This document shows positions 16,592 through 26,457 of a DNA stretch of 28,564 bases, piece by piece (position 1 is the first letter of the stretch; each line of letters opens with the position of its first letter). The stretch spans positions 1 through 28,564 of IMG/VR virus record IMGVR_UViG_3300030098_000476; one strand, 5' to 3'. The notes below the pieces were generated by a model. That model was not told where the DNA came from. It saw only the letters and a list, made by a program, of their open reading frames with translations, and did not search any database. The stretch is from a virus. Lineage: Duplodnaviria > Caudoviricetes. The position numbers were made by a program, and so were the translations under genes.

Positions 16592-16777
16592 ATGAAATTT
16601 ATTTTAACACAATTATTGAAATCAAAGAAAGTATGGTTAGGTATATCATCTATTATTATACCTATGATTGCAAACTTTTTAGGAGCTGATGAAGAAGCTG
16701 TATCTAAGATATGGTATTCACTATTAGCTATGTTATTAGGACAATCTGCTGCAGATTTTGGTAAAGAACGAAAGTAA
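16592..16777 (+). CDS. Holin
   Basis: 61 aa, two hydrophobic segments, KSKKVW N-terminus, next to the endolysin. Confidence 0.7.
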   Translation: MKFILTQLLKSKKVWLGISSIIIPMIANFLGADEEAVSKIWYSLLAMLLGQSAADFGKERK

Positions 16778-17486
16778 TAGATATAGACTAAAACCACACG
16801 AGATTGTGGCACTAGAAAAGATGAGGGAATCCGAGACTAGAAATGTTCTAGTCATCGGTGACCTTCATGAACCATTTTGCTTAGATTCATACTTAGAATT
16901 CTGTATAGACCAATACTATTTCTATAATTGCACGGAGGTAGTCTTTATAGGCGATATAATCGACAATCACTATTCAAGCTACCATGAGTCCTCAGCTGAC
17001 GGATTAGGTGGCTTAGACGAGTTAGAATTAGCTATTAAGCGTATAGCACGTTGGCGTAACGCATTTCCGATGGCTACTGTTATAATCGGTAACCATGACC
17101 GCATTATAATGCGTAAGGCACAAACTTCTAGTATTCCTAGCAAATGGATTAAATCATACAAAGAAGTATTAGAAGTACCTGATTGGAACTTCGTTGAAAG
17201 ATACGAGAAAGACAACGTACAATACATTCATGGAGAAGGTGGTACGGCGAGAACCAAATGTCGTGCTGATATGATGAATACAGTACAAGGACATTTACAC
17301 ACACAAGCATACTGCGAACATTATGTTGGTAAGCGTTTCAGAGTATTTGGAATGCAAGTTGGTTGCGGTATAAACCACAAAAGTTACGCGATGGCGTATG
17401 CAAAATACGGAAAAAGACCAGCCGTGGGGGTAGGAATTGTCAGCAATAATGGCAAAACTCCCATAAATATTCTGATGCCTTTATAA
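16758..17486 (+). CDS. Calcineurin-like metallophosphoesterase
   Basis: GDLH, GDIID, GNHD, HG and GHLH motifs in canonical order. Confidence 0.9.
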   Translation: MVKNESNRYRLKPHEIVALEKMRESETRNVLVIGDLHEPFCLDSYLEFCIDQYYFYNCTEVVFIGDIIDNHYSSYHESSADGLGGLDELELAIKRIARWRNAFPMATVIIGNHDRIIMRKAQTSSIPSKWIKSYKEVLEVPDWNFVERYEKDNVQYIHGEGGTARTKCRADMMNTVQGHLHTQAYCEHYVGKRFRVFGMQVGCGINHKSYAMAYAKYGKRPAVGVGIVSNNGKTPINILMPL

Positions 17487-17547: not shown

Positions 17548-17578
17548 TTTGTTAATATAAAAAAAGTATGTATATTTG
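17548..17578 (+). promoter_or_regulatory. Bacteroidota housekeeping-sigma promoter (early promoter)
   Basis: TTTG (17548-17551), 19-nt spacer, TATATTTG (17571-17578); matches the -33/-7 consensus TTTG..TAnnTTTG. Confidence 0.85.
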
Positions 17579-17587
17579 TTCCATAAT

Positions 17588-17909
17588 TAGTTCATTGAAA
17601 TAGTAGTAAACGAATCTTGAATATAGGAAACTAGACGCGCACCCTAGCGATGAGGGTTAAATATGTTATACGCTTTATAAAATAAAATAGCAACAATGTT
17701 ATTCTAATACTTGGCGAGGTATTAAACATATTTAAACGATGGGATTAGGCTCTGTGATAGCATATAAACCGAAGCGAGGCAAGTGGTATTATCACATCAA
17801 ATAAAGGTTTGATGTAAAGGCTCAAAAGGTTGATAATAAATCGTACTCAGTATGTGGACGTGCTAGTAAACGAAGTACTACAAGTTGACACTACTATTTC
17901 AATTAACTA
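17588..17909 (+). ncRNA. Large (~320 nt) structured RNA, unassigned family
   Basis: 20-bp terminal inverted repeat (1 mismatch) enclosing at least 8 internal stems with G-U pairs and GNRA-type loops; no credible ORF. Confidence 0.7.
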
Positions 17910-17938
17910 TAATAATTATTAACTTAAATAAAACAGAA

Positions 17939-18196
17939 ATGAAATCAAATTTTAAAATGCTAGAAGCAACAGGAAAACAAGAAGCTATTATATCTATATG
18001 CGATGTAATGGCAGAAAACCCAGTATGGCTTAATAAATGTAAAAGCGATTTATTTGCTTTACTTAATGACTTATCTACTACTAGGCAGCGTTCTATGTGG
18101 TTAGATTGTCTTACTTGGAATCAGGTAAGAGATTTATTTATTGAGATTAAAACTGAATACTACAACTTTAAAGATATTACACAATGGAACTTTTAA
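17939..18196 (+). CDS. Early hypothetical protein
   Basis: ATG 17939 after an A-rich leader; the track's TTG 17885 falls inside the RNA stem. Confidence 0.65.
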   Translation: MKSNFKMLEATGKQEAIISICDVMAENPVWLNKCKSDLFALLNDLSTTRQRSMWLDCLTWNQVRDLFIEIKTEYYNFKDITQWNF

Positions 18197-24372: not shown

Positions 24373-24933
24373 ATGAAGATAAAAATAAGCAAATTAAAAC
24401 CAAACGAAAGTAATCCTAGAATAATAAAAGAACCTAAGTTCAGGAAGTTAGTACAAAGCATAAAAGACTTCCCTGAAATGTTAGATTTACGACCTATTGT
24501 TGTTGATGAGGAAATGACAATACTAGGAGGTAATATGCGTTACAAAGCATGTATACAAGCAGGAATCAAAGAAGTGCCTATCAAGATTGCTGAAGGATTG
24601 ACTGATGAACAAAAAAGCGAATTTATTGTAAAAGATAATGTAGGATTCGGTGAATGGGATTGGGATAGTTTAGGTAATGATTGGGATAATGTAAAACTAG
24701 GCGAATGGGGTATGGATGTATGGCAACCTGAAGAAGCAGTTGATTATTCTGTATTAGATGATATAGATTTAGGAGATACATTAGAAGATAAAACAGCAGG
24801 AGTAAAAAGAGCAATCTGTATAGAATTTGATACTTTGATATATGATGAAGCTAGTGAATTAATAAAAAAATCTAGAGAAGAAGGTAATGATGTCGGAGCA
24901 ATAGTATTACAAGCATTTAAAAATGTATCATAA
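24373..24933 (+). CDS. ParB/Srx N-terminal domain protein
   Basis: LKPNESNPR..LVQSIKDF..RPIVVD..ILGGNMRYKA..DN..GEWD. Confidence 0.85.
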   Translation: MKIKISKLKPNESNPRIIKEPKFRKLVQSIKDFPEMLDLRPIVVDEEMTILGGNMRYKACIQAGIKEVPIKIAEGLTDEQKSEFIVKDNVGFGEWDWDSLGNDWDNVKLGEWGMDVWQPEEAVDYSVLDDIDLGDTLEDKTAGVKRAICIEFDTLIYDEASELIKKSREEGNDVGAIVLQAFKNVS

Positions 24934-25651
24934 AGAACTCGATATATATTGTAGTTGTATATCTACAAACAGACCTGATAATGTGAAAGCACTTGAAGAA
25001 AAAACAGGTTTAAAATTTACTTATTATACAAGAGTAAATGAATCTGAAACATATTTAAAAGAAGGAGCAAGTAAAGTTGTAGAAGTTGATGGTAATATAT
25101 GCGTAGCTAGAAATCAAGCTATAAAAGATGCGCAAGGTAAATTATGTTTACAAATATCTGATGACTATAAAAAAGTAAACCTAGTTATTGGCAACAACGG
25201 AACATACAGAAAAAAAGAAATATCATTTTTGAAAGCTATACAAATAATGGTAGATAATTTTAAAAAATTAAAAGGTAGTTACGCAGGAACAGCAATAACA
25301 GATAACTTGTTTTATTATACAGGTAAGCAAGTTCAACAAAATAAATTAATTGTAAATGATTGTATAATAGTAGACGGTAAAATGTTATTTGATGAGAAAG
25401 CAGATTTAAAAGAAGACTACGATATGTTCATAAGACAAGTTCAAGCAGGAAACAGAGTTTTGCGTTTTAATCTTCTTCTAATGACATTTCCGCATAGAGG
25501 TAACAAAGGTGGTGCAAATGATTATAGAACTTCAGAGAGAGAGTCTAAATGCAATAAATACATATTACAAAAACATTATGGTATTGTAAAACCGCATAGT
25601 CGTAGAGAAAATCAACTAGAAATAGATTACAAAAAATTATTAAAAAAATGA
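24923..25651 (+). CDS. TET-associated glycosyltransferase-like (GT-A) protein
   Basis: STNRP, ARN, LQISDD, FDE..KEDYD and NKGG motifs; coupled to a TET/JBP gene. Confidence 0.65.
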   Translation: MYHKELDIYCSCISTNRPDNVKALEEKTGLKFTYYTRVNESETYLKEGASKVVEVDGNICVARNQAIKDAQGKLCLQISDDYKKVNLVIGNNGTYRKKEISFLKAIQIMVDNFKKLKGSYAGTAITDNLFYYTGKQVQQNKLIVNDCIIVDGKMLFDEKADLKEDYDMFIRQVQAGNRVLRFNLLLMTFPHRGNKGGANDYRTSERESKCNKYILQKHYGIVKPHSRRENQLEIDYKKLLKK

Positions 25652-26457
25652 AAACACTTAAATTACAAAAAATAGAACACACTAGGAAAGTAGGTAATCG
25701 TTGTGAATATATAGAACCCAACGTAACTGAAAACTGTCTGTTAGAAGTTGATGGCGAAATAATAGGATTCTACATAAAAGATGTAGCTGAATATAGTGAA
25801 CGCATGAGCAAACTATTAGCAGTAGCAGACAAAGAGTTTAGAAGCGATAATGTGCCAAAGTCTTTATTAGAACGTAGTGATGTGTTCAGTAAAGTATATT
25901 CAGAAGGTATGACTCGTAAACAAGCAAAGAAAGAAGGAACAATACAGATGAGTGCAATATTAGGAAGCGTAGCACCAAAACCTCATATGCGTAGACCATA
26001 CCCTACAATATCAGCAGTACACAGAGATAAGAAAGCTCAGACATTCATCAAAGCAATGTGGGGTTGTTGTTTAGAAGCAGAACAAATCATCAAGAAACTA
26101 ACACCTGAAATATATAAAAGGCAAGTTGAATTATTTCAAGATATAAAAAAAGAATGGCGATTTGGTAATATGTATACAAGTAGTATATCTAATTTTAATA
26201 TCTCAGCACCTTTTCACAGAGATACAGGAAATATAGTAGGAACAGTAAACACAATACTCACAAAAAGAAACAATGCGAATGGTGGTTGTTTAAATGTGCC
26301 TGACTACGATGCAACCTTTGAACAAGCTGACAATTCAATGTTAGTATATCCTGCTTGGAAGAACGTACACGGAGTAACACCGATAAAACAAATCAGCGAA
26401 GATGGGTATAGAAATAGTTTGATATTCTATCCTCTCAAAGCATTTAAAGGAATATAG
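25648..26457 (+). CDS. TET/JBP-family 2-oxoglutarate Fe(II) dioxygenase
   Basis: H190-R-D192, GGCLNVP, H241 (VHGVTPI), R255 (YRNSLIFY). Confidence 0.8.
   Translation: MKTLKLQKIEHTRKVGNRCEYIEPNVTENCLLEVDGEIIGFYIKDVAEYSERMSKLLAVADKEFRSDNVPKSLLERSDVFSKVYSEGMTRKQAKKEGTIQMSAILGSVAPKPHMRRPYPTISAVHRDKKAQTFIKAMWGCCLEAEQIIKKLTPEIYKRQVELFQDIKKEWRFGNMYTSSISNFNISAPFHRDTGNIVGTVNTILTKRNNANGGCLNVPDYDATFEQADNSMLVYPAWKNVHGVTPIKQISEDGYRNSLIFYPLKAFKGI

Follow-up and report, generated by a model that had tools for sequence, protein, structure and literature searches.

The locus and its putative production signals

The window, that is, the whole stretch of 28,564 nucleotides analysed here, is a linear virus record of 28.6 kb that is 95% complete and carries portal, terminase, endolysin, and replication genes on its plus strand. 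The phage's host is probably a Bacteroidota bacterium, because SD-like sites occur at 1 of 39 open reading frames and because the promoter considered below is of the TTTG/TANNTTTG type. Between a metallophosphoesterase gene, which ends at 17486, and a run of small open reading frames, which begins at 17939, sits a non-coding RNA (ncRNA) element. The features of this locus are as follows.

16758-17486, plus strand: metallophosphoesterase gene, the upstream neighbour, given for context only (phrog_221, E 2e-46)
17548-17578, plus strand: promoter of the Bacteroidota housekeeping type, with TTTG at -33 and TATATTTG at -7; predicted start at A17583
17588-17909, plus strand: the whole ncRNA, closed by the terminal stalk P1 (17588-17607 with 17890-17909)
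17590-17600, plus strand: boxA-like motif at the 5' end of the RNA, with two differences from GYTCTTTAANA
17939-18196, plus strand: first small open reading frame downstream, 85 aa, of no family and not fixed across copies of the RNA

Elsewhere in the window, positions 24373-26457, before the small terminase subunit, hold ParB-like, glucosyltransferase-like, and phrog_6059 genes (the last labelled queuine tRNA-ribosyltransferase). These genes are patchy among relatives and are probably a DNA-modification module.

Motif scans and a profile search recovered full-length copies of the RNA on 35 other contigs, as well as one cut copy. The alignment comprises 28 distinct copies, with seven near-duplicates and the fragment left out. 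The aligned copies are 287-356 nt long and share 39-99% identity (median 50%). They contain no conserved open reading frame, the longest plus-strand stop-free run in each being 26-54 codons.

A sequence-only reading of the window had proposed a large structured RNA as the first transcript of a host-type promoter, and the -7 box on which it relied (TATATTTG, 17571-17578) does stand ahead of the RNA. Promoters of the TTTG/TANNTTTG type are described for Bacteroidetes, and the numbering given in that source (PMC6847099) would place the start at A17583, five bases 5' of the terminal stem. By itself, a TTTG..TANNTTTG match is no more frequent than chance would give (two matches, against 2.8 expected). 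Across the family, a strict TANNTTTG lies 7-19 nt upstream of the RNA in 21 of 28 copies, with near-matches in six and none in L303, and a host-type promoter precedes 27 of the 28. A perfect TTGACA-17-TATAAT also overlaps the 3' arm of P1 (window 17885-17913); it is partly kept in some window-type copies only and is probably there by chance.

Every one of the 28 copies begins with a boxA-like motif, although the starts of the copies were themselves set by this motif, and five homologous loci were found through it, most having been found through internal motifs. The motif is exact in three copies and has one or two differences in 25, measured against a consensus (GYTCTTTAANA) that is gamma-proteobacterial and may not be the host's. 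Position C4, critical according to the source of that consensus (10.1101/091223), is invariant. Among the promoters of RNA-less relatives, 1 of 75 has such a motif. In rRNA, according to PMC8632103, boxA recruits a chaperone ring of Nus factors, and RNase III cuts the duplex that joins the flanks. A terminator-like hairpin follows only two of the 28 copies, so most copies could remain part of the mRNA that continues downstream, as its 5' leader.

In L303, a type I hammerhead lies directly before the RNA, with its predicted cut about 17 nt upstream. This hammerhead (L303:898-947) and a near-identical one at about 2134-2183 of L066 each end a small open reading frame in a variable early region. 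A link between hammerhead and RNA was rejected, since L066 lacks the RNA.

The fold and its covariation

The terminal pairing that had been proposed for the RNA is borne out, with 19 of 20 positions paired. No other repeat of its kind exists in the window (20 nt, at most one mismatch, less than 600 nt apart), and such a repeat arose in none of 50 dinucleotide shuffles of the window. A terminal helix occurs in every class of the RNA, with a sequence that differs class by class. Folding energy is moderate and alike on the two strands (z of -2.59 on the plus and -2.92 on the minus strand), and therefore leaves the strand open. The homologues fix it: their model helices contain 52 G-U cells against 8 A-C cells, which agrees with the plus-strand RNA first proposed and favours RNA as the functional molecule. 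The window also has an exact 11-nt direct repeat within the RNA (17604-17614 and 17864-17874), of which the second copy alone is conserved from class to class.

In the comparative model, compensatory changes back a core in which a long stalk leads to a five-way junction tied by two reciprocal pseudoknots. An irregular stalk (P1-P3) opens into a purine-rich internal loop, followed by P4, the closing helix of a junction from which four arms branch (P5, P7, P8, and P9). P7 and P9 are hairpins of 2 bp. In PK1, the P7 loop is paired to the strand immediately 5' of P9; in PK2, the P9 loop is paired to the strand immediately 5' of P7. P5 and P8 vary in both length and content. The window's elements are as follows.

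Within 17622-17877, plus strand: P3 (17622-24 with 17875-77) and the purine-rich internal loop (17625-30 opposite 17867-74)
Within 17622-17877, plus strand: P4 (17631-34 with 17863-66) and P4b (17636-37 with 17859-60)
17638-17756, plus strand: P5 arm, consisting of P5a (17638-41 with 17753-56) and P5b (17643-47 with 17745-49)
Within 17638-17756, plus strand: variable domain of P5, with an 11-bp helix (17657-67 with 17725-35) and hairpins at 17686-17703 and 17705-17724
17760-17855, plus strand: pseudoknot PK2 (P6), 17760-65 with 17850-55, the latter being the loop of the 2-bp hairpin P9
17769-17844, plus strand: P7, a 2-bp hairpin (17769-70 with 17778-79) with a 7-nt loop, and PK1, 17774-77 with 17841-44
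17787-17838, plus strand: variable arm P8 (17787-94 with 17831-38), with an inner hairpin at 17795-17814
17847-17858, plus strand: P9, a 2-bp hairpin around the 3' strand of PK2

P4 is paired in 111 of 112 cells of sequence-only MAFFT alignments, through seven different sequence pairs and with double changes at all four of its base pairs. For PK2, 166 of 168 cells are paired when the alignment is anchored on invariant motifs; its register needed this anchoring, and the raw alignment gives 70.5%. Motif-anchored alignments likewise show pairing in 106 of 108 cells for P8 (in the 18 copies that share the linker before it) and in 53 of 56 cells for P9, which uses four different dinucleotide pairs. 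P7 is paired in 56 of 56 cells and changes from C-G to U-A in six copies. PK1 is paired in 97.3% of cells, has one double change only (in L113), and is the weakest link of the topology. Over the whole 30-pair core, 90.9% of 828 cells are paired, versus 27-36% when the pairing is slid, and double changes occur at 18 of the 30 pairs; a one-column misalignment of P6 lowers this tally, which was obtained from the sequences from which the model was derived.

When all column pairs were scored against a tree-based null, pairs of the model ranked first, second, sixth, ninth, and tenth of 37,675. None passes a family-wise test at E<0.05 on its own, the best having an E of about 0.11. At the level of whole helices, covariation across the 28 aligned copies is strong. 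The score of P4 was matched by one of 200 tree nulls and none of 200 column permutations, and that of P3 by none of either 200; P5a and PK1 each have a p of 0.06. The minimum number of pair-type changes under parsimony is 7 for P3, 11 for P4, 12 for P5b, 12 for P6, 2 for P7, 4 for P9, and 1 for PK1. About 25 bases are invariant, and they cluster at the junction and pseudoknots. The element is almost certainly a real structured RNA.

All the stems named in the sequence-only reading are present in the sequence; about half of its inner helices were kept, and about half gave way to a different, covarying core. In the 11 window-type copies, the 11-bp helix 17657-67/17725-35 is paired in 107 of 118 cells with 14 double changes, AATAGCA/TGTTATT in 71 of 71 with three, and ACATCAAA/TTTGATGT in 88 of 88 with six; TAATACTT/AGGTATTA also holds (86 of 88 cells, no double changes). 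Five other stems are probably not part of the functional fold, to judge from the alignment, because they show no double changes in these 11 copies and compete for bases of better-supported helices. These are TAG-GAAA-CTA (55 of 84 cells paired over all 28 copies), ACCCT/AGGGT (42 of 53 cells in the window-type copies), AATCTT/GGGATT (62 of 66, and 107 of 167 over all 28), TGTGATAG/TTATCACA (78 of 88), and TAGTA/TACTA (41 of 53). The two pseudoknots and the long-range core had not been part of the earlier description.

One copy, L342, resembles the L310 class in its 5' part and at its 3' end, but its P8 arm is like that of L315. Comparison of these sequences suggests that recombination swaps whole arms inside the RNA.

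An accessory gene in a swappable slot

The RNA was intergenic at all the loci that were annotated, where it interrupts no gene, and genomes that have it carry one copy each. Copies follow terminase (terL), major capsid, NinG, RusA-like, or phosphoesterase genes. The genes downstream are unrelated from copy to copy, with a small open reading frame usually within about 40 nt. In L109 and L119, the promoter and the RNA lie in reverse orientation between terL and the gene that follows it; they have no gene downstream on their strand, and copies of these types point into the end of the opposite-strand terminase gene.

Among the best 80 of 595 loci found through the upstream gene, 79 lack the RNA behind the same promoter, and the lone RNA-bearing relative (L001) is identical to the window. 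A sister with 93% identity (L002/L003) has a 95-aa open reading frame in the RNA's place behind the same promoter, and in L004 the slot is empty. The RNA is missing altogether from the genomes of three relatives that are 93-100% complete, while G012 lacks it at the window's slot and carries it elsewhere in its genome. Proteins encoded in the 1.5 kb behind this promoter fall into 44 clusters, of which 21 are singletons. Of 49 proteins from the slot and its neighbourhood, none matched a known anti-defence family, so a counter-defence role for the slot is by analogy only. The usual occupants of the slot are small proteins, which suggests that an RNA can fill the role of a host-takeover gene.

No phage protein among those of the window tracks with the RNA. 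A dedicated phage protein partner was considered and rejected, as the two genes absent from the RNA-less sister are also absent from the RNA-bearing G012. On this comparative evidence, the RNA gene appears to be accessory, dispensable, mobile as a promoter-RNA cassette, and independent of its neighbours.

Searches of characterised genomes added little. Three different copies had no blastn match over the RNA among 50,697 annotated phages. A pattern scan of GTDB returned eight matches, none of them real, with a pattern that admits only 22-52 nt across P8 and would therefore miss window-type copies. Further pattern scans returned mostly chance matches, and 199 such loci gave no model match. A search of sequencing runs listed no carrier of the RNA.

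The family probably crosses host phyla, a conclusion that rests on one genome, G001, since the copy there sits in a T4-like phage with sigma-70 promoters and SD sites. This phage (204 kb) has SD sites at 23 of 30 open reading frames, against 0-3 SD-like sites in nine other stretches, and ten sigma-70-type promoters in 19 kb. Its copy of the RNA has a TTGACA-17-TATAGT promoter. Only two units in G001 combine a sigma-70 promoter with boxA, both of which lead into non-coding sequence, and one of them is the RNA. The second (G001:C1, about 199040-198550, minus strand; L540 from 15540 downward) covers about 490 nt of non-coding sequence, with a stem-closed structure of about 130 nt and two tRNA-like elements ending in CCA that were missed by ARAGORN and Rfam, and possibly represents further undescribed RNAs. 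ARAGORN detects 28 tRNAs in G001 (L531-L540), one with a CTA anticodon; the tRNA cluster, at 27 kb and below, lies about 90 kb from the RNA. G001 also encodes RtcB, an RNA ligase, a poly(A)-polymerase/CCA-type enzyme, RlaP, NAD synthase, a protein kinase with a PP2C phosphatase, and a ligand-gated ion-channel-like protein.

Relation to known RNAs and possible function

The description of the element as a plus-strand phage ncRNA of no assigned family stands: it has strong covariation and a host-type promoter, and no Rfam family, tRNA, tmRNA, or conserved open reading frame accounts for it. Rfam models had no match on the window RNA (E up to 5) or on sets of five (E up to 2) and 11 loci (E up to 5), and further Rfam 15 scans at the gathering score were also empty. 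ARAGORN found no tRNA or tmRNA in the window and 11 loci, a T-arm pattern was present in 0 of 28 copies, and no tRNA lies near the RNA in the window, 11 loci, and five longer stretches. There was no match to models of group I or II introns, RNase P, glmS, HDV, twister, pistol, or hatchet (E up to 5); circularly permuted forms of introns and RNase P were compared by eye only, with consensus motifs. Motif likenesses were considered for the P7/R element of group I, domain V of group II, helix 43 of 16S, and the tmRNA resume region, but these were rejected since the bases involved covary as part of P4 or PK1. Reverse transcriptase (PF00078) was absent from five carrier records, four of them less than 40% complete, and reverse transcriptases were also lacking among the 27 window proteins scanned and beside the loci annotated. 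With no adjacent reverse transcriptase in these records and loci, a retron, DRT, or Abi ncRNA is not supported.

In outline, the nearest known RNA is raiA, which shares with the present RNA a comparable size class, a closing P1, a compact two-pseudoknot core, variable peripheral stems, and a function likewise unassigned. According to PMC12968392, raiA has an average length of about 200 nt, reaches 253 nt in its largest solved form, occurs mainly in Bacillota and Actinomycetota bacteria, and makes both pseudoknots with one linker strand. Here, in contrast, two 2-bp hairpins exchange loop-strand pairings, and the RNA was found on phage contigs only. The raiA linker UUAGA(C/A)GUAA occurs in none of the 28 copies and the Rfam raiA model has no match; the likeness fails on sequence and topology.

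ROOL and GOLLD are nearest in lifestyle, being large, pseudoknotted, phage-borne, and likewise unassigned in function; 10.1101/2024.12.08.627333 describes them as cage-forming RNAs of 659 and over 800 nt, with ROOL non-essential. They provide a precedent for orphan phage RNAs as a broad category, and tRNA islands are frequently found close to them. The likeness fails on size (287-356 nt here), model (no match), and tRNA context, as the present RNA lies away from tRNA islands in a promoter-boxA cassette of its own. An rRNA leader offers a parallel, with a boxA-like motif directly following a housekeeping promoter and a long helix that brings the two transcript ends together. Here, however, what lies between the ends is not rRNA, the motif is exact in only 3 of 28 copies, and the motif itself is inside the stalk.

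Fremin et al. 2023 (PMC10690425) used covariation to find candidate RNAs in IMG/VR intergenic regions. The models of that work are 29-151 nt, so the whole RNA is not among them, and six motif strings of the RNA had no match in three of its six supplements. An unnamed fragment of the RNA may sit in that catalogue. The literature covered, which excludes most subscription papers, contained no description of the RNA. The RNA family and its fold appear to be new and undescribed, and the fold is unlike those of the families tested.

Large structured RNAs of a new class seldom come to light, and many of those known earlier proved to be ribozymes, riboswitches, or unusual assemblies. What makes the present fold unusual is a set of two 2-bp hairpins, the loop of each being paired to the strand immediately 5' of the other. 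The RNA also appears, from its sequence signals, to borrow the production signals of host rRNA. With about 300 nt and 28 diverse natural variants, it is directly testable.

The RNA probably acts in trans. The gene appears dispensable, mobile, and independent of its neighbours, and no protein tracks with it; therefore, a trans-acting RNA is suggested, whose partner would come from the host or not be needed. The best explanation, although it falls somewhat short of an even chance, is that of a free-standing accessory ncRNA gene of a new class, produced in an rRNA-like manner and acting as an early decoy for a conserved host factor. Host RNA polymerase would start at 17583, and the boxA-like motif would recruit host Nus factors, aiding co-transcriptional folding. 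The P1 stalk could then be cut like the rRNA leader-trailer duplex, by RNase III, freeing a core of about 270 nt from downstream mRNA. Such cutting would account for release of the RNA despite the scarcity of terminators, which follow just two of the 28 copies. The invariant junction bases would form a binding surface, and the RNA would act early in infection, in trans, by binding a conserved host factor. The target could be a defence protein that senses or cuts RNA, a factor of translation or transcription, or a nucleotide signal. It should be widely conserved, since the family seems to span host phyla.

As for mechanism, a decoy or binder is a plausible proposal from these sequence features, held with a little less than even confidence. 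A related joint claim is more tentative still: that the RNA is a protein-free phage effector, in which a reciprocal double-pseudoknot of about 270 nt, made through the host's rRNA route, would disarm or redirect a conserved host component across phyla. This wording covers a sponge for a defence protein or immune nucleotide, as well as a previously unrecognised ribozyme.

In the last case, the invariant double-pseudoknot core would be an active site for cleaving or joining RNA, whether in cis or with host or phage RNA as substrate, and P5 and P8 would be expendable. Ribozymes typically have a conserved core, a variable periphery, and double pseudoknots, and the RNA matches this style, with its invariant bases concentrated at the junction and pseudoknots and with free variation in P5 and P8. 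Its lack of need for a phage protein, its apparent independence of host phylum, and the presence of hammerheads in the same cassettes would also fit. A ribozyme is nevertheless unlikely. No intron or known ribozyme model matches, no gene is interrupted, and small self-cleavers would need neither a promoter-proximal boxA head nor a closing stalk of 10-20 bp.

Covariation is blind to whether a pairing is intramolecular or intermolecular, and the loop-strand pairings could instead build rings or cages, by analogy with ROOL and GOLLD, which give the precedent of phage-borne pseudoknotted cages. An RNA-only oligomer or scaffold of this kind is improbable: the RNA is half the size of ROOL and GOLLD or less, lacks Rfam similarity, and has no tRNA near any copy checked. 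It could also coexist with the decoy explanation.

Similarly improbable is a cis-acting leader of an early operon, whether a put/EAR-type antiterminator, a riboswitch, or a translational enhancer. The RNA does come first on the transcript, with a small open reading frame usually close behind and a terminator only rarely. However, the downstream genes are unrelated between copies, and sister phages run the same operon without the RNA. The L109-type and L119 copies have no gene on their strand to regulate, which weakens the antitermination leader offered among the options of the sequence-only reading; its broader view, that a promoter of host type drives an ncRNA, is supported, and its suggestions of a decoy role and of release via the terminal stem stand as proposals.

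A DNA-level or selfish element (a MITE, origin, or packaging signal) or a chance fold is very improbable, despite the 20-bp terminal inverted repeat, patchy distribution, and many insertion sites, because the promoter outside the repeat travels along, the pseudoknots covary, G-U cells far outnumber A-C cells, and relatives replicate without the RNA. A MITE or non-autonomous transposon was rejected specifically, as the repeat arms differ between classes and each genome carries one copy.
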